From Bacteroidota bacterium (GTDB lineage: Bacteria > Bacteroidota > Bacteroidia > Bacteroidales > GCA-2748055), in contig DAOVKJ010000002.1 in assembly GCA_030631845.1 (NCBI GenBank), positions 1 to 55,405 on the forward strand: 55,405 bases of DNA, in the 5' to 3' direction. Within the stretch, counting starts at the first letter, position 1, and each line of letters opens with the position of its first letter. A model generated the notes under the pieces. The model was given only the letters and a program-made list of their open reading frames with translations, made no database searches and was not told the origin of the DNA. Below, piece after piece: positions 16,936-29,525 of this stretch. Both the position numbers and the translations under genes were made by a program.

Positions 16936-17025
16936 GTTTGCGGCTAAAAATATTGGATAAAATGAAAATGAATTGTACTCCCATGCCGCAAAAATCACTA
17001 TATTGTTCATACTTTTTTGTTAAGG

Positions 17026-17400
17026 ATGGATAAACTAGAGTTTCAGCCTACTCAGAAGACCCCGTACGTTTTGCTGGACCCCAATGGCAAGATTAAATTT
17101 AAAGGTAGGTCCATCCCGGAAGATGTATCACTCTTCTACGAGGATATACTTGACTGGATCATCGCCTTTGCCTCCTCGCCACCAGCGTTTACAGAGGTTG
17201 ATATTGAAATGGAATACCTGAACAGTGGTACTTCCAAGTATATGCTCAGGTTACTCAAAAAACTAAAGGAAGTTGATAACGATGGTTACGATCTGAAAAT
17301 CAACTGGGTATATGAGGAGGGCGATGATGATATCCTGGAGAGAGGAGAGTATTATGCTTCCATCCTCGATTTGAAAATCAGCTTCATCGAGATCGAATAG
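17026..17400 (+). CDS. DUF1987 / SiaC-like partner-switch protein
   Basis: 124 aa. 'TQKTPYVLLDPNGKIKFKGRSIPEDVSLFYEDILDWI' and 'YLNSGTSKYMLRLLKKL' match the DUF1987 pattern. I prefer the ATG at 17026. Confidence 0.8.
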   Translation: MDKLEFQPTQKTPYVLLDPNGKIKFKGRSIPEDVSLFYEDILDWIIAFASSPPAFTEVDIEMEYLNSGTSKYMLRLLKKLKEVDNDGYDLKINWVYEEGDDDILERGEYYASILDLKISFIEIE

Positions 17401-18489
17401 CTACTTTGTTTCCCTGTTTTTTTGCAATTGATTATCCAGGTATTTCCAGAATGCCACATGGAATAGATAGGAATCACTATTTTCTATGGCCTCTTGGAAA
17501 TTGATGGTGCTGTCACAACCGACGGGATGTTGAATAGATGGATCAAATAGTCCCGGTTTCTCCGGGTGGAACTGTATCCCCAGTACATTGGGGTACCGGG
17601 TGTGCTGGATCGCTTCAATAATCTTTCCATCCATGGAGGTGGCAGAAACTTCCCATCCCAATCCCAGCTTTTCGATGGCCTGATGGTGCGAACTGAGCAC
17701 CAGGGGCGCTGTACCCTTATTGAAACCAATCCCACTGGTGAGGATCATACTCTTTTCAAGGGCAACCCTGTGAAAGTGATAGGAGGTGGGATCTTCGCAC
17801 CCCGTGTTTAGATAATCCATGTAGTTGCGATGCATCTGGTCGGGTGGCAGATTCAGGATATCCTCTGCCTTCCATATCCCGTAAATTTCGGTGGGAATGT
17901 CCTGTACCATGGTTCCCCCGGTGGCCACACTCATGGTTTGCATTCCCAGGCAGATTCCATTGACCAGATACGTTTTCTTCTCTTCCAGGTAGGGTATCCA
18001 GTCCGTATCCTGACTGCCTCCCAGCAAGTGAAAAAGGTAAGATAGCTCCACATAGTGCCTGAAGGGATCTGTGACCCCCGTGAGCAGGTGAACCTCCTCT
18101 CCGTAACAAACAGGTGGAATATCGGGTCCGCCCATAAACAGGGCTCCATTGGAGCATTCAAAAAGTTTCCTGAACTGTCCGGTGGCAGTATTTTTCCGGA
18201 ATATGTTTTCTGGTCCCAGCTCCCCTTTGATCTCCCTGAGACTAAAATGGGTGGCACTGTGCAGATCAATATAGGCTTTGGCGTCGCTGTAATCATACCT
18301 TTCACCCTTGTGGTATACGCCCAGCAGGTGGTAGCCATCCAGTGAAAACAATCCTTCATCCACCAGTTTTTGAACAACTTCCAGGTTATAGGCGGTTGGG
18401 TGGAACATTAAAACGGTATCCTGCCCCACAGCGTAGAGGCTGGTGCAGAATACCAGGATCAGACCGGCAATACTTTTTCGGAATTTCAT
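17401..18489 (-). CDS. exported class-I glutamine amidotransferase-like / peptidase C26 (gamma-glutamyl hydrolase family)
   Basis: It has a signal peptide 'MKFRKSIAGLILVFCTSLYAVGQ', a nucleophile elbow 'GICLGMQ' and 'IQFHPE' supplying the His/Glu. Confidence 0.8.
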   Translation of the reverse strand: MKFRKSIAGLILVFCTSLYAVGQDTVLMFHPTAYNLEVVQKLVDEGLFSLDGYHLLGVYHKGERYDYSDAKAYIDLHSATHFSLREIKGELGPENIFRKNTATGQFRKLFECSNGALFMGGPDIPPVCYGEEVHLLTGVTDPFRHYVELSYLFHLLGGSQDTDWIPYLEEKKTYLVNGICLGMQTMSVATGGTMVQDIPTEIYGIWKAEDILNLPPDQMHRNYMDYLNTGCEDPTSYHFHRVALEKSMILTSGIGFNKGTAPLVLSSHHQAIEKLGLGWEVSATSMDGKIIEAIQHTRYPNVLGIQFHPEKPGLFDPSIQHPVGCDSTINFQEAIENSDSYLFHVAFWKYLDNQLQKNRETK

Positions 18490-18505: not shown

Positions 18506-20833
18506 TTACTTAAGAATGGCAGAAAGTTGCTGAATAATACTATTCAGGTTGTCACCGGTCTCCTCGTCAAGGATTTTGAAACTCACATTTTCATTGTTGA
18601 CCTCCTGCAGGAAGTTTGAAGCAAGAATGGCCCTGGAGTAGTTGCTGTCTATCAGGTATTCCGAGTTTTTTACGGTGATTCCCTCCCTCACTTTCACCAC
18701 GTATTTCTTAAAATCTATGGTGGAGAAGAGGTCCTCCGTGTCGGGATAATCCTCCAGAAACAACATCTGTTTATTGGCCAGGTCGATTTTATTGTCGTAC
18801 TGCTCTTGCATCAGTTTTTCATGTACCAGCCTCTCTTCGGCATTACCGAAATTGAGAATGACATAGTCGATGCCCCAACCCATCAGGATATTGACCATCA
18901 TAGGGATGCTCTCTGCTCCTGAAGCAGGCAGGAAATAGCACTCTTTTTCGAAGCCGGTAAGTGCAACGACTGCTTTCATGAAATAGTAGGTAGCCAGATC
19001 CTTGACAATGACATTGTTGAAGGATTTGATAATCTCTTGCTGGCTCAGTCTTGCACCCATGGTGGAGTAGATGGGAGAGAGGGTGTCGGCCGTAGCCGAT
19101 TTGAGAGATCTCGCACTGTAGACCAGGGTTTCACTCTTCATATCGTCTTCGATGGCGCGCTGGACAGCCAGGATCCTGTATAACTTGTTTACATCGATCA
19201 GGTGGGGGGAGTGGGTGGTATAGATGATCTGTATCCGCTCCCGGATATCATCAAACACTTTAAGCACATCTTCCTGGGCTCTTGCATGCAGGCTAACTGC
19301 CGGTTCATCGATCAACAGCACCTTATCGTGCTTGCTCTTATCCATGGCGGTGGCCTTTAGCTCCAGAAAGAATGAGAGAAACCACCTTACCCCGCGACTC
19401 CGCTGTTTGGGGTAGAGCCGTTCCGACTCGTCTTTGATCCAAAACTCAATATAAGGCTTTCCGCTTTTTTCAGGATTGGTGTGGTCGTAGTGAGAGAGTT
19501 CAAAATTGATTTTAATCTTATTGTTCTTCCCCACATTCTGTCTCCAGAAATCCTGGAAATTGAGTGTGAGTTCCCCATTCAGGTTCTCAATCTTCTGTTT
19601 CAGGATTCTGCTGGAGGGCTGCTGGAAAAAAGAGTACTCCAGTCCGGTGATGGTTAGAAAATTAATGGCTGCTTTATACCCTTCTGCACGTTTGTTAGCC
19701 TTGATAATGTCTTCCAGGTCGATGCGGTTGGGAAGGAGAGAACTAAAATCTTCAAACATTTCAAAATCGGGAAGGATTTTAAAAATTTCTTCTGCAAGTT
19801 CTGTGGAGCTGTAGAATTCCTTCACTGATTCCAGCTCCGTCCGGGCTGCTTTAACGGCCTTTTCGATGGACATCCCTTCAAAGACAAATTCGAGGGAGAG
19901 TAAATGAATATGCTGCTCCTCGAGCAGTCCCGCTATTTCATCTTTAAGCTTCTCATTATCGGTCCTGAATATCTCCTCCCTGATCTCTGCCGCCCGCTGT
20001 TCCCGTTCAGAGGAGTACATTCCGGTCATCTGAAGTAACTGTTTCAGCTGCTCTTGCAAGAGGGCCAGCTCCTCTTTTTTCACAGCTATCTGCTCCTGGA
20101 TATCCTTCAGTTTCCTGCTAACCTTATTTTTTTCATCCAGTGCTTCCAGGATATCACTCTTCTCCTCCTGTTTTACTTTTTTCTGTTCAAGTGTCTCATT
20201 CAGCTTGAAAAACATCTCCTCTTCCAGTTCCAGCTCTTTCTTTAACTCCTCTTTTCTCTCCCTGGAAGGAAATTTCCTGGTGTTTCGCTTGATCTCATTT
20301 ATCCTGAGCCTGATTGTTTCTACCTTTTCGGCGGTCCACTCAGTCTCCTCTTTTGCTTTATTCAGGTTTTTTGAAGCGGTGGTTATGTCACGATTCAGGT
20401 ACTCAAGGTTCTCCATGACCTTCAGTTCCCTCTGCCTGAGATTGTCAAGAGTATCATTATAAAACTCCTGCAATTCATCTCCCATCTCCATATGGGAATC
20501 TATTTCATCTTCCCATCTTCTAGTGATAGAAACGGTTTCCACACTACTGATTAGTTTCCGGATTTCCGGATTCAACCTTCTTTTATCCAGGCGGTTCTCA
20601 ATATCGGCAAATTGAAATCTGAACTTGCAGGTCACCACTGGCAGTGAGAGGTCACTTCTGAGCATATCCTCAATCAGTCTTCCGTCATGGAAGGCCTTAA
20701 GCGCCTCCAGAATAGATGTTTTACCCGATTCGTTCTGACCAATCAGGCTGGTGATATTATCATGGGCCAGCTGGTGCCAGCCGGTATCCACAATGGATCT
20801 GAAGTTCTGAATTCTAAAAGAAACCAAATGCAT
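18506..20833 (-). CDS. OLD/AAA_15-type ABC ATPase with a long coiled-coil insert and a Toprim-like C-terminal domain (catalytic acidic residues not evident)
   Basis: 775 aa. Motifs are 'FRIQNFRSI' followed by Walker A 'GQNESGKTS', a K/E/L heptad-rich insert of about 220 aa, 'RSRGVRWFLSFFLEL', Walker B 'VLLIDEPAVSLH' and H-loop 'YTTHSPHL'. The last 170 aa or so have a beta-alpha-beta pattern. Confidence 0.7.
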   Translation of the reverse strand: MHLVSFRIQNFRSIVDTGWHQLAHDNITSLIGQNESGKTSILEALKAFHDGRLIEDMLRSDLSLPVVTCKFRFQFADIENRLDKRRLNPEIRKLISSVETVSITRRWEDEIDSHMEMGDELQEFYNDTLDNLRQRELKVMENLEYLNRDITTASKNLNKAKEETEWTAEKVETIRLRINEIKRNTRKFPSRERKEELKKELELEEEMFFKLNETLEQKKVKQEEKSDILEALDEKNKVSRKLKDIQEQIAVKKEELALLQEQLKQLLQMTGMYSSEREQRAAEIREEIFRTDNEKLKDEIAGLLEEQHIHLLSLEFVFEGMSIEKAVKAARTELESVKEFYSSTELAEEIFKILPDFEMFEDFSSLLPNRIDLEDIIKANKRAEGYKAAINFLTITGLEYSFFQQPSSRILKQKIENLNGELTLNFQDFWRQNVGKNNKIKINFELSHYDHTNPEKSGKPYIEFWIKDESERLYPKQRSRGVRWFLSFFLELKATAMDKSKHDKVLLIDEPAVSLHARAQEDVLKVFDDIRERIQIIYTTHSPHLIDVNKLYRILAVQRAIEDDMKSETLVYSARSLKSATADTLSPIYSTMGARLSQQEIIKSFNNVIVKDLATYYFMKAVVALTGFEKECYFLPASGAESIPMMVNILMGWGIDYVILNFGNAEERLVHEKLMQEQYDNKIDLANKQMLFLEDYPDTEDLFSTIDFKKYVVKVREGITVKNSEYLIDSNYSRAILASNFLQEVNNENVSFKILDEETGDNLNSIIQQLSAILK

Positions 20834-20843
20834 GTTTCCGGCT

Positions 20844-21647
20844 TTATATAAATCTTATTCCGAATATCAATATGTCGTCCACCTGGAACTCATCACCTTT
20901 CCACTTTGTCATCTGGCGGTCCAGCTCTTTTCGTTGCTCCTTCATGGTCCAATCCGATATCCTGATCAGTAATTCTCTGAACGGTCCATATTTGAATTTC
21001 TTGTTCTTGGGTCCGCCAAACTGATCGGGATAACCGTCAGAAAATAGGTATACGATATCGCCCGGCTTAAGTTGCAGTGTATGGTTGGTAAATGAATTTT
21101 CTTCTATTGCATCGATACCCACCGGCATTTTATCGGCCTTGATTTCGGTAAGCACTTTGTTGCGGACATGATAGAGCGGGTTGTTGGCTCCCGAAAACTG
21201 CAGTTCGCCTGATCTGGGGTGGAACACGCATAGGGCCATATCCATGGCATCTTTGTTTTCCAGTTCGTAACCCCGCTGGTGCAGTGCTTTCATCACCCGT
21301 TCGCGAAGCAGGTTCAGGATCCTGCTGGACCGGATGGGACCCCTGATACTGAGGATCTCATTGAGGAAGGAGACACCCATGATACTCATCAAAGCACCTG
21401 GTACTCCATGCCCGGTACAATCGCCGGCAGCTACTACGATATACTCTTCCTTTCGGGAACAGTAGTAGAAATCACCGCTTACAATATCCCGTGGCTGATG
21501 GAGAATAAAGAACTCTTTGAGCATATTCTCCATGTACTTATGGTTTGGCAGCACGGCTCGCTGTATGAAGCTGGCATATTTGAGGCTTGCCATCAGTTCC
21601 CTGCGTTGATTCAGCAGGTTTTCCCTTGAGAGTTTTGTTTCTTTCAA
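20844..21647 (-). CDS. stand-alone SpoIIE-type PP2C phosphatase
   Basis: 'RDIVSGDFYY', 'AAGDCTGHGVPGALMS', 'FSDGYPDQFGG' and 'DDILIFGIRF' are present. The start is either a TTG at 21647, which overlaps the upstream TGA, or the ATG at 21593. Confidence 0.85.
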   Translation of the reverse strand: MKETKLSRENLLNQRRELMASLKYASFIQRAVLPNHKYMENMLKEFFILHQPRDIVSGDFYYCSRKEEYIVVAAGDCTGHGVPGALMSIMGVSFLNEILSIRGPIRSSRILNLLRERVMKALHQRGYELENKDAMDMALCVFHPRSGELQFSGANNPLYHVRNKVLTEIKADKMPVGIDAIEENSFTNHTLQLKPGDIVYLFSDGYPDQFGGPKNKKFKYGPFRELLIRISDWTMKEQRKELDRQMTKWKGDEFQVDDILIFGIRFI

Positions 21648-24600
21648 TCTATGATAATTCTTAGTCCCATCACCAGGATATCGTCGATCTGACTGAGATT
21701 TCCCATCCAGTCCGACAATGATTTTTCCATGGCTGCACCCTGATCTTTCATTGGAACAGACTGCATTTCCAGGATTAGTTTTTTAAAGTTTCTCGACATA
21801 AACTTCTTCTTTGCCGGTCCGCCAAACTGATCAACGAATCCGTCAGAGAACATATATATGTTATATCCTTCATCTTTGAACATGGAGGCATGGAAAGGCT
21901 CCTTTTTTTCAGATATGCCGATGGGCATATGGTCGGCCCTGATCTGAAGCAACAGGTGTTTGTCATCATGGATAGCGCCCCTGGGCAGGTCCAGTTCCAC
22001 CCCCTTATTTAACTTTGTTTTTTCGCTTCGCTTTAGTTTTCTGACCAGGTATATGGGATTATAGGCACCTGAATATTGAAACTCATTGCTCTTCAGGTCA
22101 ATGGAGACCATGGCCAGGTCCATGCCATCTTTGGAGGAGTCCATACCTCTTTTACCCGACTGCTTGAGTGAGGTAATGACCTGCTCCCTCAACAAATCAA
22201 GGATCTCATTGGTGCCGGTAACCTTCGATTTGTTCACAATCTCGTCTATGAAAGTCATCCCCAGCATACTCATAAAGGCGCCCGGTACACCATGTCCTGT
22301 ACAATCGGCAGCCACAACCAGCAGCTTTTCATTGATGGATCCTATCCAGTAGAAATCACCACTCACAATATCTCTCGGCTTGAAGAGGATAAAATGTTCA
22401 ATGTGATGTTTATCCAATAGCTTTTGTGAGGGCAGCAGGGCCTGTTGGATTCTGCTGGCATATTCGATGCTGTCGGTGAGCTCCTCTTTCTGTTTCCTGA
22501 TCTTGGCAGTACGCTCTTCGATCACCAATTCCAACCTGATATTTTCCTGCTTAAGTCTGCGGGTATAGAGCTTGATAATGATATAAATCAGGAGAGCGGC
22601 AAGAATAAAGTAGACCGCATAGGCCAGGAAACTTGCATACCATGGGGTGAGAATAGTAAAGGACCAGTTGGAGGGAAGGCTCTCCATGCCATACACATTC
22701 CTGGCCTTTACGATCATGGTATAGGTGCCCCAATGCAGGTTGGTAAACTCCCTGAAAGGAACCTTACTCCAGGAGGACCATTCATTCTCAAATCCCAGCA
22801 ACTGATAGCTGTATTCCATCTCTTCCTCCTGTTCAAAGAAGGGAGCGGCCCATTTGAACCGGATGTGATTGAACCTGTAGTTGATCTGCGGTTCGGTACC
22901 TGGTTCCTGGGAATCACTTAACCTGTATGATCCATCCCGGCTCACCCTGAAGTTTGCACCCATAAAAATAACCGAATCACTTCCCAGGGTTACATTCCGG
23001 ATCAATGTGTGGAACTGAACGGTATCTTTTCGAGAGTACCCTTTGTCAAATTGGTAGAGCTTGTTTGATTTTCCAAACCAGACATCTCCCTCAGGATCAG
23101 TGTAGAAAACATCCACAGATGTATTCTCGAGCCGCTGAAATGATTTTTCCTGGATTACCTGGAGTACCCCATCTGTTTTGCTGGCCACCAGTTCGGTCCA
23201 CTCTCCGGCACAGTTTTCAAAAGAGAACCAGAAGTCACCATCAAGATCCTTGTGAAATGCCATCACCAGATTTTCACCCGGAGGCAGGACACTGTTATAG
23301 AAGGTATCCCTGTAGAAGGTATCCCTGAAGAAGTTATACCTGTAAAAACCGTTCCGGGTTCCCAGCAGCACTTCGTCCGTTTCAGGATCGAGGAATACAT
23401 GGTTGTTATCGTTGGAAGGCAAACCATACTTATGGTCCAAAAACTTTGCTGTTGCCTGGGCAGGAGGCTCCAAATCGATTCGGGTCACCATAAATTCTGA
23501 ACTGCCCCAGAAGTAACCATATTTATCAATACATTTCTTCTGTAGAATCTCATCATCGGGAAGCCTGCTTATCCGCATAAACTCCTCCCATCTGCCCCGC
23601 GAATACTCCAATCCAACCAACTGACTCTTTCCGGCATATAACCTGTTCTGATGTTTGGGATCCTGCAGCAGGAACCAGCCGGAATACTCCCCACTACCGG
23701 GTTCCTCTTTAGATGGAGTTACAATCAGGTCCTCCATCCTGGTGACATGCATTTGCTGGTCCACCACATAGATTCCATTCTCTGAGGAGGCCAGCAGAAA
23801 AGATCTGCGGGCCGAAGGGGTGAAGAGAAAAAGCTGGCGAATAATTTCACCGCCGATCACAGGTACCTCGATAAATGATGTCCCGGTGGATGTTGAACTT
23901 TTGTAATATAGTCCCCCGAATGTGGAGATAAACAACCGGCCATTGAACTGTTTGACATCGGTAATAAAGCCTTTAAAACCAGACATTTCGGTAAATACCC
24001 GGAAAGGATTTGAAGGTTCCAGCTTACTGACCCCCATAAAATTGGGAATCCATAACAGACCCGGTGCCTCCTTTTGATCGTTATAGTAGACAGAAGGCAC
24101 CTGTTCATCAATCAATCCTTCGTTTTCATTGATTATCTCACGGGCCTGACCCTCCCTGGTAAGGATGACCACACCGCTGTTCAGGGTCGATACCACAAAA
24201 TCGTCCTGAAATGGCCGGATGTCAGTGATATTACCCTCAATGAGCAAGTCATCCAGCTCCGGTTCGGCAAAATTTCTCTCAATGCTGCCCGATTGAGGAT
24301 TATAGAGGTAAAGCCCATAAAAAAAGGTGCCCATAAGGATCCGGGTTTCATCAAACTGCACCATCCCGGTAATGGTCATCTCTTTGAAGTAGTCCCCGCC
24401 TGGCATTTCAATAAGCCTGCCATCCTGGAACTTCATTAATCCCTTATCTAAATTGGAGACATAGAGGGTACCTTCCACCAGGAAGGAGTAGAGCGAATTC
24501 TCTGCTGTTTGCAGGATGTTTAACTGTTCACTGGAGGTGTCATAGATAAAGATATAGTTGAAGGAGCAGAAATAGACCTTCCCCTGGTGAAAATAGGTTC

Positions 24601-25006
24601 TCCTTACACCCCAAAAGGAGTATAGATTCTGATCGAGGGTGTCGGAGATGGACCTGTATTGCATCTCTCCATGTCTGTCCGGAGCCAGGAATCCAAATTC
24701 AGAGACAGCCCCCACATAGACCACTCCATTGTCGCCTGTTACCATGGAGAGGATCATGGGATCTTTAGGGACCAGGATTCTGCGCCACTCCACACCATCG
24801 TACTCCAGGACCCCTTTGTCGTTGTTTCCCACATAGATGATGCCGCGCGAATCCTGTGTGATGCACCAGTTTTGTTCGCTCCCCTTTGTGATGGCGTGTT
24901 GATAGTTGGTTACTATGGGGACCCCATTCCTGTTGGGCTGCGCAAACAGGATGTTTGTTGCCGGAAAGCAGAGAAGAAAAGCAAAAAGCAGGGATCGCTG
25001 GCCCAT
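21644..25006 (-). CDS. periplasmic propeller/Y_Y_Y sensor fused via one TM helix to a SpoIIE-type PP2C phosphatase
   Basis: 1120 aa. It has a signal peptide, repeated two-component-regulator-propeller-like blades, a Y_Y_Y-like 'YSYQLLGFENEWS...WGTYTMIVKARN' segment, the TM helix 'FLAYAVYFILAALLIYIII', a coiled coil and a PP2C domain ('AADCTGHGVPGAFMS', 'DDILVMGLRI'). Confidence 0.85.
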   Translation of the reverse strand: MGQRSLLFAFLLCFPATNILFAQPNRNGVPIVTNYQHAITKGSEQNWCITQDSRGIIYVGNNDKGVLEYDGVEWRRILVPKDPMILSMVTGDNGVVYVGAVSEFGFLAPDRHGEMQYRSISDTLDQNLYSFWGVRRTYFHQGKVYFCSFNYIFIYDTSSEQLNILQTAENSLYSFLVEGTLYVSNLDKGLMKFQDGRLIEMPGGDYFKEMTITGMVQFDETRILMGTFFYGLYLYNPQSGSIERNFAEPELDDLLIEGNITDIRPFQDDFVVSTLNSGVVILTREGQAREIINENEGLIDEQVPSVYYNDQKEAPGLLWIPNFMGVSKLEPSNPFRVFTEMSGFKGFITDVKQFNGRLFISTFGGLYYKSSTSTGTSFIEVPVIGGEIIRQLFLFTPSARRSFLLASSENGIYVVDQQMHVTRMEDLIVTPSKEEPGSGEYSGWFLLQDPKHQNRLYAGKSQLVGLEYSRGRWEEFMRISRLPDDEILQKKCIDKYGYFWGSSEFMVTRIDLEPPAQATAKFLDHKYGLPSNDNNHVFLDPETDEVLLGTRNGFYRYNFFRDTFYRDTFYNSVLPPGENLVMAFHKDLDGDFWFSFENCAGEWTELVASKTDGVLQVIQEKSFQRLENTSVDVFYTDPEGDVWFGKSNKLYQFDKGYSRKDTVQFHTLIRNVTLGSDSVIFMGANFRVSRDGSYRLSDSQEPGTEPQINYRFNHIRFKWAAPFFEQEEEMEYSYQLLGFENEWSSWSKVPFREFTNLHWGTYTMIVKARNVYGMESLPSNWSFTILTPWYASFLAYAVYFILAALLIYIIIKLYTRRLKQENIRLELVIEERTAKIRKQKEELTDSIEYASRIQQALLPSQKLLDKHHIEHFILFKPRDIVSGDFYWIGSINEKLLVVAADCTGHGVPGAFMSMLGMTFIDEIVNKSKVTGTNEILDLLREQVITSLKQSGKRGMDSSKDGMDLAMVSIDLKSNEFQYSGAYNPIYLVRKLKRSEKTKLNKGVELDLPRGAIHDDKHLLLQIRADHMPIGISEKKEPFHASMFKDEGYNIYMFSDGFVDQFGGPAKKKFMSRNFKKLILEMQSVPMKDQGAAMEKSLSDWMGNLSQIDDILVMGLRIIID
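23298..23327. repeat. perfect 15-nt tandem duplication inside the sensor-PP2C gene (RDTFY RDTFY)
   Basis: tagaaggtatccctg occurs twice back to back (23298-23312 and 23313-23327), in frame. Confidence 0.9.
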
Positions 25007-25053: not shown

Positions 25054-25500
25054 CTATTTCAGCAGGCGCAGATCAAAGATGCCACCTTTTACAATATAAC
25101 AGGGAGAGCCACACTCTTCATTGGCATTATATAGATGCATATCATCGGCATCAAAAGCCTCAATGACCCGGTTTCCCGATCGATACGTGGCACGGACCGT
25201 GTAGTTGGCGTCTATCTTTGAATAGAGATAAAACTCCTCATTAGTAGCGGTATCCTGCCAGTCGATCACACCCTCTTCATAGCTTCCCCGGTAAAATGTG
25301 AGGGGTACCGAATCATTTTCAGCATCAATGGTAAGGTAGATGATCAGGTTTGCGCTATCGGGTGCATAACCATAGCAATCTTCGCAATCCACCGACAGCA
25401 TCCAGTCTTCCGGTTCACATGCCGTAAATTTACCTGAAACCAGCACCAGGAGTGCAACTGCAAATAGTTTAGTATGAAATCTCTTTCCGGACATTTTCAT
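25054..25500 (-). CDS. small Cys-containing lipoprotein, unknown function
   Basis: 'MKMSGKRFHTKLFAVALLVLVSGKFTAC' is a lipoprotein-type signal. I chose the ATG at 25500, since the longest ORF would overlap the ankyrin gene by 100 nt. Confidence 0.55.
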   Translation of the reverse strand: MKMSGKRFHTKLFAVALLVLVSGKFTACEPEDWMLSVDCEDCYGYAPDSANLIIYLTIDAENDSVPLTFYRGSYEEGVIDWQDTATNEEFYLYSKIDANYTVRATYRSGNRVIEAFDADDMHLYNANEECGSPCYIVKGGIFDLRLLK

Positions 25501-26908
25501 TACTCTGGTTTGTGATTCTGATGAACAGTGTAATATTTGTCTTCCATGCCCCTTCAAGGAGTGTTCCAAATGTATAACGTTCGGCTCCTGCTTTTATTCC
25601 GGCAATATCCCCCTTCAGGTAGAGGCCGGCCGACAGGGCCAGAGAGTAGTTAACTTTCGGATGGTCGGTGACACCCCTGAAGCTTGGCATGGAGAGCATT
25701 CCATAGAGTCCGCCATAGGCGCCATATTCCATGCCCGATTGGTCGTGCAGGATTGAAAAATTCTTTCCCCCTCCAAGGGTCCACACCCACCGTGACTCCC
25801 TGTATTGGTGTGTCAGCAGTTCTTCTACTTCAATCTGCACCTTCCTGTAAACGGGGCGAAAGTCGATACCGGTTTCAGCAAAAAAACCGAACTTACGATC
25901 CACCAGCGAGATCCGGACCTGCATCATATGTTCGTTGCCTCTGAAAGAGTTGCCCCACCCCAGATTGAACTCTGAAAACCGGGGTCCGGGAGAGGGGGAG
26001 GCTCCGGCTGTTTTTAAAAGCGTGAGAATCTTTGTTTCGCCCTGCTGACGGGCAAGATCATACAGATTTTCGCCAGATTTAATGAGATGATTTACATTGG
26101 CACCGCTATCTATCAGTAGTTTGGCAATTGTGTCTTGCCCACTGAGAACGGCGTGAGCCAGGGGGGTATAATTCTGTTTGTTGACCCTTTCCAGTGCTGC
26201 TCCTTTTTCAAGCAGTAAGCGGGTTATCCTGAGCTCTCCCTGTTGAGCGGCAATCATAAGGGGCGTATTGTTCTGCTTGTCGGGACCATCCGGATCGAGC
26301 CCGTTCTGCAACAGTATATCGGCTGTCTCAATGTGACCGAAGTAGACAGCTGTCATCAGGGCCCTGTTGCCATCTTTGTCACTGATGGTGTCTGAGGCAC
26401 CATAGAAGAGAAGCAGGTCAGCTATTTCATAGTTATTTAGAGCTGCCGCATATAGCAAGGCAGATCCCTGGTAACTGTCACGATGATCCGGGTCGGCCCC
26501 TTTTTCCAGAAGGAAGCATGTCACATCAAAGTGACCGTTGAGCACTGCAATCAGCAGGGGAGTGGTCTCCTCCATAAAGGTTAATTCCGGGTCGGCACCA
26601 TTCAGAACCAGTAGTTTGACCAGGAGCGCATCGCCGCTTTCTGCAGCAAACATCAGAGCGGTCATTCCCCCTTCCGCTTTTGCATTGGGATCGGCCCCCC
26701 GCTTAAGAAGCATCAGTACCGCATCGGGATTCACCTTCAAAACCGATTCAACCAGGTTCCAATCGTCCTCTCCCGCTCTGAAATATGAGGTGTCCACTAT
26801 CTCTCCCATCACTTCATCCTGGGCAAACATATCAGGGCCAGAAAGAGCAGCCAAAAGACCTCCTGTCAGCAAAAAGATGCTTATCCTGATGATTGCTCTT
26901 CTATCCAC
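25469..26908 (-). CDS. exported ankyrin-repeat protein with a C-terminal beta-barrel-like domain
   Basis: It has a GTG start, a signal peptide, about 8 ankyrin repeats ('G.TALM.AA..G....V..LL..GADP') and a 165-aa beta-rich tail ending in an aromatic residue ('...KEISY'). Confidence 0.85.
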   Translation of the reverse strand: MDRRAIIRISIFLLTGGLLAALSGPDMFAQDEVMGEIVDTSYFRAGEDDWNLVESVLKVNPDAVLMLLKRGADPNAKAEGGMTALMFAAESGDALLVKLLVLNGADPELTFMEETTPLLIAVLNGHFDVTCFLLEKGADPDHRDSYQGSALLYAAALNNYEIADLLLFYGASDTISDKDGNRALMTAVYFGHIETADILLQNGLDPDGPDKQNNTPLMIAAQQGELRITRLLLEKGAALERVNKQNYTPLAHAVLSGQDTIAKLLIDSGANVNHLIKSGENLYDLARQQGETKILTLLKTAGASPSPGPRFSEFNLGWGNSFRGNEHMMQVRISLVDRKFGFFAETGIDFRPVYRKVQIEVEELLTHQYRESRWVWTLGGGKNFSILHDQSGMEYGAYGGLYGMLSMPSFRGVTDHPKVNYSLALSAGLYLKGDIAGIKAGAERYTFGTLLEGAWKTNITLFIRITNQSNENVRKEISY

Positions 26909-27338: not shown

Positions 27339-29525
27339 TTAGTTGCCCAGTTCCAGCTGGTTACGCACCAGGTTGAAATAGTACCCTTTCTTTGCTATCA
27401 GGGCATTGTGCTTGCCCTCCTCTACGATCTTGCCCCTTTCAAGTACAATAATCTGGTCCGCATTTTTTACGGTGCTCAGGCGGTGTGCTATAATCAGCAC
27501 TGTTTTACCCATGAAAACCATTTGAAGGTTATCCATAATACGCCTCTCATTATTGGCATCCAGAGCACTGGTGCCTTCGTCAAGGAAAAGGAATTCAGGA
27601 TTTTTGTAGATGGCTCTTGCAATAAGGATCCGTTGTTCCTCTCCTCCGCTGAGGGTGAGACCCTCCTGTCCGATCACTGTATTGTAACCCAGTGGCAGCT
27701 GGTCGATAAAATCGTCCATACACGCCATCTTTGCAGCATATAACAGCTGGTCGGCTTTTATCTCATGTTCGCCAAGTGCTATATTCCTGGCAATGGTGTC
27801 GGAGAAGATATAACCATCCTGCATCACCACACCGCACTGGCTTCTCCACAGATCGGGCGACATCATCTGTATGTTCATATCGCCCGCTCTGATATCTCCT
27901 TTTGCGGGTGGGTAGAATCCCAGCAATAACTTAAGCAGCGTTGTTTTTCCACTACCACTGATACCAACCAGCGCTGTAACTGTATCCTTTTTCAGTGTCA
28001 GGTTGATACCCTCCAACACATTTCGTCGAATAGCGCCAGGATATGTGAAATCCAGATTATTTACCACCAGCTTCTCTATGGCAGGAAGTACTGTTACACC
28101 TGTTTCACGCTGATACTCATCTTCGGAGTCGTGTATTTCTCCCAATCGCTCCAGGCTGATTTTGGCATCCTGAGCCCTGTGAAAGAAGGAGATCATCTGT
28201 TCGATGGGACCATTTAATTGGCCCAGTATATAGCTGATTGCCAGTAGTGTACCAAGAGTCAGATTGCCATTCAGCACTGCGATGGCTGCGGTCACATTGA
28301 TCAGGATGTTTTTGGTTTCATTAATAAATACGCCCCCTGCTTCCTGATACTGGTTGAGGGAGAGCGATTTCATATTGACCTTGAAGAGACCTGCCTGGAT
28401 ATCCTTCCACTCCCACTGACTGGATCGCTCTGCATTGTTCAGTTTGATCTCCCTGATCCCGTGAATGATCTGAATCAGTTTGCTCTGATTTTCGGCCATT
28501 TTTGAAAAGTACTTCTGATCCAGCGTTCTTCTACGCTTCATAAAGATGAAGATCCATATGAAATAGAGCAGGCCGCCTGCAAGGAAGATCAGCAGAATCT
28601 TCAGGCTGTAGATTGCCAGGATGATGGCAAATACTACCAGGTTGACCATGGAGAAGAGGATGGTGAGCGAAGAGGTGGTCATAAATGTTTCGATCCTGCG
28701 GTGGTCGCCTATACGCTGCAGGATATCACCGGTGAGTTTGGTGTCGAAGAATCCCACAGGGAGCTTCATTAGTTTTGAGAGGAAATCGGAAATAAGTGCA
28801 ATATTGACACGTGCACTCAGGTGAAGCAGGATCCATCTGCGGATAAAGTCAATCCCCATCTGGGAGATGATCAGCACAAACTGGAAAAGCAGCACCAGGT
28901 AGATAAAGGGAAGATCCTGGTTGGTGATCCCGAAATCGACTATGGACTGGAACAGAAAAGGGAGCAGGAACTGGATAATGCTTCCAATGATCAAACCCAG
29001 CAGGAGGTGGTATACATAGCGCCGGTAAGGAGCCAGGTACCGGAACAGGTACCTGAAACCGGTTTTCTTTATGGGCTCGTCTTCCTGGTTCAGAAAGTCG
29101 GGTGTGGGTTGAAGCAGCAGGGCGGATCCTTTGGCTTCTCCCTCCTGGCGGGTACTGATCCAGCCCTTCAGGAACTCCTCTTTCGTGTAGACGGCCTGTC
29201 CAAATGCAGGATCGGACACATATACCTTATCCTTGCGGATCTTATATACCACCACAAAATGCTTCTGCTGCCAGTGAACAATCACCGGCAGCGGTGCCTC
29301 CTCCTGAAGACGTTCCCATGTGAGAGAGACGCCCATGGTCTGCATCCCAATCTCCTCTGCGCCCCTGGCGATACCAAGCATCGATACTCCCTCTCTGGTG
29401 AGGTGTGATTTCTCCCTGAGTGTTTGAAGGGTAAAATGTTTGCCGTAATGACGGGCCACCATTCTCAGACAGGTGGGTCCGCAGTCCATGGCATCAAGTT
29501 GCTTGTAGAAAGGGAATGAGGGCAT
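27339..29525 (-). CDS. peptidase C39 domain-containing ABC exporter (PCAT, bacteriocin/peptide exporter type)
   Basis: 728 aa. It has the catalytic-Cys motif 'QLDAMDCGPTCL', six TM helices, Walker A 'GISGSGKTT', the signature 'LSGGEEQR' and Walker B 'FLFLDEGTSALD'. Confidence 0.92.
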   Translation of the reverse strand: MPSFPFYKQLDAMDCGPTCLRMVARHYGKHFTLQTLREKSHLTREGVSMLGIARGAEEIGMQTMGVSLTWERLQEEAPLPVIVHWQQKHFVVVYKIRKDKVYVSDPAFGQAVYTKEEFLKGWISTRQEGEAKGSALLLQPTPDFLNQEDEPIKKTGFRYLFRYLAPYRRYVYHLLLGLIIGSIIQFLLPFLFQSIVDFGITNQDLPFIYLVLLFQFVLIISQMGIDFIRRWILLHLSARVNIALISDFLSKLMKLPVGFFDTKLTGDILQRIGDHRRIETFMTTSSLTILFSMVNLVVFAIILAIYSLKILLIFLAGGLLYFIWIFIFMKRRRTLDQKYFSKMAENQSKLIQIIHGIREIKLNNAERSSQWEWKDIQAGLFKVNMKSLSLNQYQEAGGVFINETKNILINVTAAIAVLNGNLTLGTLLAISYILGQLNGPIEQMISFFHRAQDAKISLERLGEIHDSEDEYQRETGVTVLPAIEKLVVNNLDFTYPGAIRRNVLEGINLTLKKDTVTALVGISGSGKTTLLKLLLGFYPPAKGDIRAGDMNIQMMSPDLWRSQCGVVMQDGYIFSDTIARNIALGEHEIKADQLLYAAKMACMDDFIDQLPLGYNTVIGQEGLTLSGGEEQRILIARAIYKNPEFLFLDEGTSALDANNERRIMDNLQMVFMGKTVLIIAHRLSTVKNADQIIVLERGKIVEEGKHNALIAKKGYYFNLVRNQLELGN

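Follow-up and report, generated by a model that had tools for sequence, protein, structure and literature searches.

A long coiled-coil OLD-family ATPase of Bacteroidales with an altered Toprim metal-A site and a linked PP2C phosphatase gene

The stretch of DNA analysed here, referred to below as the window, comprises 55,405 nucleotides (nt) of a Bacteroidota bacterium assigned to the Bacteroidales (assembly GCA_030631845.1, contig DAOVKJ010000002.1, positions 1 to 55,405). At 18506..20833 on the reverse strand it carries a gene for a 775-residue protein, which the list of open reading frames (ORFs), Pfam, AlphaFold2 and Foldseek identify as an OLD-family ABC ATPase-Toprim protein of a long, coiled-coil form. 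It is preceded on the same strand by a gene for a 267-residue SpoIIE/PP2C phosphatase (20844..21647), which ends 10 nt upstream of the ATPase start. An earlier reading of the same DNA, made from the letters alone and called here the original prediction, described the 775-residue protein as an OLD/PARIS-like ATPase whose Toprim-like tail seemed to lack the catalytic acidic residues. The ORF and all nine strings quoted in that prediction were found in the translation: FRIQNFRSI at residues 6-14, the Walker A motif GQNESGKTS at 32-40 (nt 20714-20740), RSRGVRWFLSFFLEL at 478-492, the Walker B stretch VLLIDEPAVSLH at 505-516, YTTHSPHL at 538-545, VIVKD at 608-612, CYFLPASG...GWG at 632-654, IDYVILNFGN at 655-664 and MLFLEDYPDTEDLF at 690-703.

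The AlphaFold2 model of the whole protein was built on 87 homologs and has a mean predicted local distance difference test score (pLDDT) of 84.2. Foldseek aligns it over approximately 830-860 columns with GajA (8u7i_A, 1.9e-10), its top structural match, and with the OLD protein of T. scotoductus, TsOLD (1.9e-8). All features of the gene described below lie on the reverse strand. The ATPase head is in two parts: an N-lobe (residues 1-118, 20480..20833), which holds Walker A, and a C-lobe (residues 352-560, 19154..19780), which holds S479-x-G481, the Walker B sequence LLIDE with D509 and E510, the D-loop SLH with H516, and the H-loop histidine H541. All of these motifs are present, and the corresponding family columns are invariant or nearly so; within Walker A, the family shows no variation at G32, N34, E35, G37 and K38. 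Pfam matches the protein to AAA_15 (1.8e-22, 80.9 bits against a cut-off of 32.1) and AAA_21 (1.4e-16, 61.9 bits against a cut-off of 27), and the PADLOC models that match the head are those for the OLD-like ABC ATPases AriA, Old, PtuA and GajA, with AriA on top. The head is thus an OLD/AriA-type ABC ATPase with complete ATPase motifs, as had been predicted.

The two lobes are separated by an insert (residues 119-351, 19781..20479) that the model shows as an antiparallel helical arm of four long helices, at residues 119-187, 191-231, 233-270 and 276-318. It had been anticipated as a hookless, heptad-rich K/E/L insert of approximately 220 residues, and this description is borne out: the insert is 233 residues long, with coiled-coil helices, 20% E, 13% L, 12% K, no cysteine and no CxxC hook. 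The only cysteines in the entire protein are C69 and C632. Long-form relatives all have approximately 300 residues between columns 100 and 400 of the alignment; the length is kept and the sequence is not conserved.

After the C-lobe comes a linker (residues 561-603, 19025..19153) with a near-invariant DTLSPI sequence and a mean identity of 96% within the close clade. The longer linker motif S.DTLSPI...MG is also near-invariant; its residues T584, P587 and G593 reach a conservation of 90% or more in short and long forms alike, and it adjoins a low-confidence segment of the model at residues 594-599. The linker is followed by the Toprim core (residues 604-710, 18704..19024), delimited by the models and by profile alignments to TsOLD and phage P2 Old, and finally by a C-terminal three-helix region seen in the model (residues 711-775, 18509..18703), which is common to the whole tail family and in which N723 and F741 are nearly invariant.

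The tail has the secondary structure β1 (607-610), α1 (613-626), β2 (633-636), α2 (640-653), β3 (657-662), α3 (665-677) and β4 (690-693), followed by helices. These elements match the β-α-β units listed in the original prediction, and a model of the tail alone has a pLDDT of 84.6. Pfam gives no match to the window tail on its own at E-values up to 10, DUF4435 included, and its membership of the Toprim superfamily therefore rests on a chain of homologs. In a phmmer search the whole protein matches TsOLD (6p74) at 8.9e-6, in an alignment that runs from Walker B through residue 684 and into the Toprim domain. An exhaustive search with residues 560-775 identified 458 representative relatives. A 50-sequence profile of the family matches 6p74 at 2.6e-18, over TsOLD residues 273-473, and hhalign aligns the same profile with P2 Old at 97% probability (E 1.2e-10, residues 266-459). 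The Pfam family PF20469 (OLD-like_TOPRIM) matches full-length relatives and also 18 of 32 family tails from which ATPase residues were left out (best 1.7e-8), while DUF4435 matches one of the 32, weakly (0.02). When EG-type relatives (P0254 at full length and the tail of P0236) were run with phmmer against the Protein Data Bank (PDB), to carry the alignment on to S478/E480 of TsOLD, the alignments ended before the Toprim domain or matched unrelated chains. We conclude that the tail is an OLD-type Toprim domain and not of the PARIS/DUF4435 type. The original assignment to Toprim or DUF4435 was correct in its first half, by the matches to 6p74, P2 Old and PF20469; there is no real DUF4435 signal.

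The residues at the expected active site are altered. K611 (codon at 19001..19003) occupies the position of the Toprim catalytic Glu (E377 in TsOLD, E398 in P2 Old), and F662-G663-N664 (18842..18850) that of the DxD motif (D431-E-D433 in TsOLD, D453-C-D455 in P2 Old). In P2 Old numbering, hhalign gives K611=E398, T615=E402, F662=D453 and N664=D455; phmmer and hmmsearch against TsOLD give the identical register, with K611, F662 and N664 opposite E377, D431 and D433, and so does hhalign with a tail-only profile against P2 Old, which is itself not significant (E 0.05). K611 and F662-N664 are located in the model at the C-terminal ends of β1 and β3, where Toprim domains put their Glu and DxD. In an alignment of 105 full-length representatives plus the window protein (n=106), E stands at column 611 in 98 sequences, D at column 662 in 90, and D or E at column 664 in 88, and homologs at 43-47% identity have E and DDD in the matching columns. 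The metal-A ligands (Glu and DxD) are thus replaced by K611, F662 and N664. The original prediction had set VKD and NFG against the canonical Glu and DxD; both sites are indeed altered, although the register of the second is FGN (F662, N664) rather than NFG. T615 is by hhalign the equivalent of the metal-B ligand (D381 in TsOLD, E402 in P2 Old). In P2 Old, each of the single mutations E398A, E402A, D453A and D455A abolishes killing, and the E377A/D431A/D433A change in TsOLD lowers activity 12-15-fold (PMC7049728).

A second acidic motif, D698-T-E700-D701 (18731..18742), is kept, in the family form [GS]IEDxF, as is an invariant lysine, K709 (18707..18709). The possibility that the Glu and DxD had been relocated to this region, within the sequence EDYPDTED, was looked for. 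E700-D701 proves to be a separate motif: column 700 is E in 103 of the 106 sequences and column 701 is D in 94, and relatives with an intact site carry the motif on top of their E and DxD. Of 64 aligned long forms, 63 have both residues, whatever their metal-A state; K709 is invariant in our alignment A2 and in all 64 of these long forms, and D612, E700, D701, D707 and K709 are kept in nearly all long forms. D698-T-E700-D701 may correspond to the metal-B S/D-x-E element (compare S478/E480 in TsOLD and D541/E543 in P2 Old), although the hidden Markov model (HMM) aligned it to TsOLD residues 468-473, 10 residues off E480, in a metal-B region where the alignments are unreliable. By spacing only, K709 is a candidate equivalent of R487 in TsOLD or K550 in P2 Old.

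The altered state is fixed and under selection. K or R at 611 together with FGN at 662-664 is found in all 120 clusters at 78-100% identity to the window protein and in the clusters at 71-76%, approximately 130 clusters in total. The length is fixed at 775 residues in more than 120 clusters. In comparisons with syntenic orthologs, in which the synonymous rate (dS) is saturated, the ratio of nonsynonymous to synonymous rates (dN/dS) is 0.026-0.089 for the Toprim core and 0.007-0.035 for the ATPase C-lobe. For the coiled coil, the two closest comparisons give approximately 0.07-0.11 and a third, with saturated dS, gives 0.008; for the C-terminal three-helix region the ratio is approximately 0.21. 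Within the close clade the Toprim core is, at 89% identity, better conserved than the ATPase N-lobe at 85%. The low dN/dS shows that the disabled Toprim domain is under strong constraint and is not in decay.

Two forms occur in the tail family: a short form of approximately 590-640 residues, with an insert of approximately 100-170 residues, and a long form of approximately 760-785 residues, with an insert of approximately 300. We surveyed 79 loci from species-representative genomes and 6 contigs obtained by protein look-ups. The metal-A state could be evaluated in 62 long-form loci: 10 retain E together with DxD, 16 have E with part of DxD, 3 have E alone, 32 lack E and both Asp, and 1 lacks E and keeps an acidic residue at 664. 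In a neighbor-joining tree, which is rough and has no support values, the window clade (K611 with FGN) is sister to a large clade with N611 and FxN that includes bins labelled Rikenellaceae. This position suggests a single ancestral loss in the lineage leading to these two clades, with further independent partial losses elsewhere. The long form was seen only in Bacteroidota-type metagenome-assembled genomes, in bins labelled Bacteroidales, Rikenellaceae, Marinilabiliaceae and Chlorobi, and no long form was found on a phage or plasmid.

The sister clade with N611 and FxN (L021-L064, for example L038, L040 and L048), which includes approximately 22 species representatives, carries the pattern NLIVND ... 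LF.N ... N[AS]EDLL. It has Asn for the Toprim Glu and a variable middle residue of the DxD (E, D, G, S, K, R or H), and its members share an upstream ORF of approximately 435 residues.

A phosphatase gene accompanies the long forms. The window copy matches Pfam SpoIIE at 1.3e-21 (77.9 bits against a cut-off of 25). Of 65 long-form loci, 61 have a PP2C homolog as the next gene upstream on the same strand, against 0 of 19 short-form loci; of the four long-form loci that lack it, three have no upstream sequence, leaving one (L029) as the sole real exception. Measured in 56 loci, the gap between the two genes ranges from -11 to 86 nt (median 11). In 57 partner sequences, including those from clades with a degenerate Toprim, the PP2C residues D59, D76, G79-H80-G81, D204, D257 and D258, among them the metal-binding aspartates, show a conservation of 95% or more, and the phosphatase appears to be active. 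PP2C is the sole universally linked gene: the other neighbors of the long forms are clade-specific housekeeping genes, and the gene arrangement of the window is syntenic down to 58-69% identity. The context of the long form is vertical, housekeeping-like and non-mobile. We see the long forms as a branch of the OLD family specific to Bacteroidota and marked by two traits, the insert of approximately 300 residues that makes an antiparallel coiled-coil arm and the obligate SpoIIE/PP2C gene upstream.

Further genes flank this pair in the window. The small PP2C gene is overlapped by 4 nt by a gene at 21644..25006 (-) for a 1120-residue protein with a Y_Y_Y sensor and a SpoIIE/PP2C domain, found only in the window clade (at least 58% identity); its PP2C domain is approximately 40% identical to the small PP2C. 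On the other side, a Peptidase_C26/GATase gene (17401..18489, -) starts 16 nt after the ATPase stop and is present only in relatives of at least 69% identity. Convergent with this operon is a gene for a SiaC-family regulatory phosphoprotein (17017..17400, +; Pfam SiaC 1.7e-30), which is syntenic only in the clade with K611 and FGN. PADLOC found no defence match for the PP2C, Y_Y_Y-PP2C and C26 genes, and a single spurious weak match for SiaC (MTase_II, E 0.008).

The nearest short-form relatives occur in a very different setting. They keep LEE...DDD and sit between N6_N4_Mtase and ResIII genes, beside GmrSD or PDDEXK genes; judged by this gene content, they are clear defence loci. The short forms look like OLD-like nucleases within operons resembling type III restriction-modification (R-M) systems, in the order Mod-X-Res. 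Three of them (P0336, P0354 and P0304) are 42-47% identical to the window protein over the shared head and tail, and the short forms share with it the Walker A sequence GQNESGKT, the GWG and GIEDxF motifs and a sister position in the neighbor-joining tree. They differ from it in their length of approximately 590 residues, their insert of approximately 120 residues, their intact LEE...DDD, their R-M context and the lack of a PP2C partner. A described system with which R-M-embedded OLD-like ATPase-Toprim genes can be compared is HEC-01 (bioRxiv 10.1101/2024.01.29.577857). At three short-form loci (L006, 2073-3848; L087, 6001-7779; L088, 2932-4740) the genes encode proteins of approximately 590-600 residues, and their stop and start codons overlap those of their neighbors.

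From the intact ATPase motifs, the loss of the metal-A triad, the constraint on the tail, the PP2C linkage and the vertical inheritance, taken together, we infer a loss of nuclease activity, and consider it probable, with some reserve, that the window protein is no longer a canonical two-metal nuclease and acts as an ATP-driven sensor or scaffold that works with the PP2C phosphatase. In such a mechanism, ATP binding and hydrolysis together with the coiled-coil arm would be used for sensing or scaffolding, and the Toprim domain would have a binding or regulatory function, as in RecR. The 775-residue protein might form a complex with the co-transcribed PP2C or be its regulator or its target. In the window clade there could also be a link to phospho-signalling through the adjacent SiaC and Y_Y_Y-PP2C genes, which is speculative, as is the idea of SiaC as a PP2C substrate. 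SiaC and the two SpoIIE/PP2C genes form a trio that is syntenic only in the window clade (at least 58% identity), and this trio may represent a partner-switching module minus its kinase. The original prediction had offered a nuclease-dead sensor or scaffold or, alternatively, a divergent active site; the metal-A residues are absent as it proposed, while "dead" may be too strong a word, given that E700-D701 and K709 are kept.

Several observations weigh against a non-cutting sensor or scaffold. When the tail alone was submitted to Foldseek, TsOLD and three GajA chains took the top four places, and did so weakly (E 0.08-0.14, TM-score approximately 0.4); a tail-only profile (A4) run against PDB sequences found no OLD chain, only spurious matches such as telomerase p82 (0.003). 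The coupling to PP2C, physical or functional, is deduced from gene order. The one locus without the phosphatase (L029, 3992-6316), whose upstream gene is oppositely oriented, has a fully intact Toprim domain (E, DDD, GIED). No kinase is encoded nearby, and no SiaB- or RsbW-type kinase was seen near the SiaC and PP2C genes. The retained E700, D701, D612, D698 and K709 could form a one-metal site. Finally, two characterized proteins tolerate damage to the metal-A site: TsOLD with the 3A metal-A mutations still nicks and linearises plasmid DNA (PMC7049728), and the archaeal OLD protein Cran1, with the residues E338/L391/D393, nicks DNA while carrying Leu as the first residue of DxD (PMC12796447). 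Because Cran1 is active with Leu, the loss of a single Asp, as in the long forms with E611 and FDN or MDN, need not abolish activity, and by this analogy the label of candidate pseudo-nuclease should fit only the clades in which all three ligands are gone.

The last of these points lead to the strongest alternative, a remodelled one-metal nuclease, in which D612, D698, E700 and D701 would hold one metal at the metal-B position, K709 would stabilise the transition state and the amino group of K611 would replace metal A, giving a weak or gated nickase. Besides the behavior of the TsOLD mutant and of Cran1, it can draw on the retention of D612, E700, D701, D707 and K709 in nearly all long forms in any metal-A state, on the gain of Asp698 in the window clade, which creates a P2-like D-x-E, and on the fact that residue 611 is specifically K or R in approximately 130 clusters and is not random. 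The window protein may therefore have a weak one-metal nickase activity. However, single mutations in P2 Old at the equivalents of 611, 615, 662 and 664 abolish function in vivo (PMC7049728), the sister clade has Asn611 and F-x-N, so that a common compensating chemistry is not evident, and the role of E700 as a metal-B ligand is itself conjectural, with the HMM placing it 10 residues from TsOLD E480. We regard this alternative as unlikely, though a serious contender.

Much less probable is a repair or chromosome-maintenance ATPase of the Rad50/SbcC/RecN kind, with a tail unrelated to OLD function. The long coiled coil within an ABC head and the housekeeping context are what such a protein would show; there are weak matches to SMC_N, Rad50 and SMC profiles or folds, and some JGI names for these genes are RecN or SbcC. 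Against this, the best matches are to AAA_15 and OLD, with SMC_N below its cut-off (34.5 bits against 40), and the tail shares its ancestry with the OLD Toprim domain. The insert has neither a hinge nor the CxxC zinc hook of Rad50/SbcC, no Mre11/SbcD-type phosphoesterase partner is encoded nearby, and the sister lineages are OLD-like proteins in R-M operons.

Less credible still is an ordinary anti-phage nuclease of OLD Class 1 whose apparently missing residues are an artefact of alignment. Some sources do annotate these genes as "predicted ATP-dependent endonuclease of OLD family", and the top PDB sequence match is a Class 1 protein, TsOLD. However, four independent alignments (phmmer, hmmsearch, and hhalign with full-length and tail-only profiles) agree on the register; the model puts K611 and F662-N664 at the ends of β1 and β3; homologs at 43-47% identity show E and DDD in those very columns; and the gene has a PP2C partner and lies outside any defence island. 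Finally, a decaying relic of a defence gene that is losing its tail, which the repeated loss of catalytic residues across the long-form branch might bring to mind, is effectively refuted by the selection analysis (Toprim dN/dS of 0.03-0.09, a length fixed at 775 residues, and 89% identity in the Toprim core against 85% in the N-lobe), and we give it next to no weight.

A non-cutting ATPase that works with PP2C has likenesses among the known systems. Like the Class 1 OLD proteins P2 Old and TsOLD, the window protein is a single polypeptide with an AAA_15-type head interrupted by a helical insert and, at its C-terminus, a Toprim domain without the Class 2 helical insertion, and Class 1 gives its best PDB sequence and profile match. 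It differs from them in having K, F, N and T in place of the metal-A ligands and the E402 equivalent, and in an insert that is a coiled-coil arm of approximately 233 residues as opposed to the compact Class 1 dimerisation domain. Whereas Class 1 genes are standalone and patchy in distribution, the window gene has a PP2C partner and is chromosomal, syntenic and vertically inherited.

Cran1, a Class 5 OLD protein of Sulfolobales, provides the closest parallel in lifestyle: it is passed on vertically, is linked to an operon partner and has no use in defence, and what its phenotype requires is the ATPase, not the nuclease (PMC12796447). Both are OLD clades confined to one taxon, with a conserved operon partner and a housekeeping-like character. 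However, Cran1 is archaeal, has a membrane protein as its partner in place of PP2C and a helical insertion in its Toprim domain, and is an active nickase with all active-site residues reported as conserved (PMC12796447), while the metal-A site of the window protein is lost.

GajA, the Class 2 OLD protein of Gabija, shares with the window protein an ATPase domain that regulates the Toprim domain. It binds nucleotide and has probably lost ATP hydrolysis, which indicates that one of the two OLD activities can go (PMC12796447, discussion). By its motifs the window protein would be the reverse case: GajA keeps the nuclease and has lost hydrolysis, and here the ATPase motifs are intact and the nuclease site is lost. 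The window contains no GajB/UvrD helicase, and the Toprim domain of the model is compact, with no insert between α3 and β4. For Class 3, the retron-OLD proteins, no reverse transcriptase was found among the neighboring genes; non-coding RNA was not searched for.

PARIS resembles the window protein in having an AAA_15/AAA_21 ATPase (AriA) with coiled-coil elements, which acts as the sensor or scaffold of a Toprim effector, the DUF4435 protein AriB. Membership of PARIS was nevertheless rejected: the PADLOC AriA model is essentially a generic AAA_15 profile, there is no AriB gene, the protein is a single polypeptide and the family tails are not DUF4435. Of the original label OLD/PARIS-like, only the first part can therefore be kept. 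A looser analogy is with RecF and RecR, in which an SMC-like ABC ATPase works with a Toprim domain used for binding and not for cleavage. RecR differs in having zinc finger and helix-hairpin-helix domains, and the tie seen to the window protein is one of shared superfamilies.

Because the branch fails the gene-context criteria of OLD Classes 1-4 and lacks the metal-A residues, we file the window protein as an OLD-family homolog outside the described classes. The literature searched contained no account of an OLD clade that is linked to PP2C or has a degenerate Toprim domain. Eleven uncharacterised OLD clades have been reported, and one of these could contain the PP2C-linked branch (PMC12796447). 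We put forward, tentatively and as a possibility that we hold to be somewhat doubtful, that the branch is an OLD class not described before: a vertically inherited two-gene module of PP2C and a long coiled-coil OLD ATPase, derived from R-M-embedded nucleases and mostly without metal-A ligands, which, as an ATP-driven sensor or scaffold, would feed into Ser/Thr phospho-signalling or be controlled by it.

Work on OLD proteins has nearly always treated them as nucleases directed against phages (P2 Old, Gabija, retron effectors and PARIS), and the one exception described, Cran1, keeps an active nuclease. The branch described here adds a conserved phosphatase partner outside any described OLD class, a graded series of metal-A sites from intact through partly to fully degenerate within one orthologous, syntenic family, and clear evidence that a disabled Toprim domain is still under strong selection. 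It makes testable the question of what an ATPase and a Toprim fold do once cutting is removed; if the proposed role is true, the family would be a natural series leading from a defence nuclease to a signalling pseudo-nuclease. There is also a caution for annotation: where these Bacteroidales genes are labelled "OLD family endonuclease", the label probably misstates the activity.

Of the other genes in the window, those for TsaD and TamB lie beyond SiaC, and the remainder are housekeeping genes. Upstream of the Y_Y_Y-PP2C gene are a small ORF without a Pfam match and a gene for a 479-residue ankyrin-repeat protein with many Ank matches (25054-25569 and 25469-26908, both on the reverse strand); the two overlap as listed, and the pair is also syntenic in locus L001. 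Ankyrin-repeat proteins are uncommon in bacteria. The gene at 27339-29525 (-) encodes a Peptidase_C39 domain fused to the membrane and ATPase domains of an ABC transporter, as in exporters of bacteriocins or peptides, and is unrelated to the OLD-family gene.

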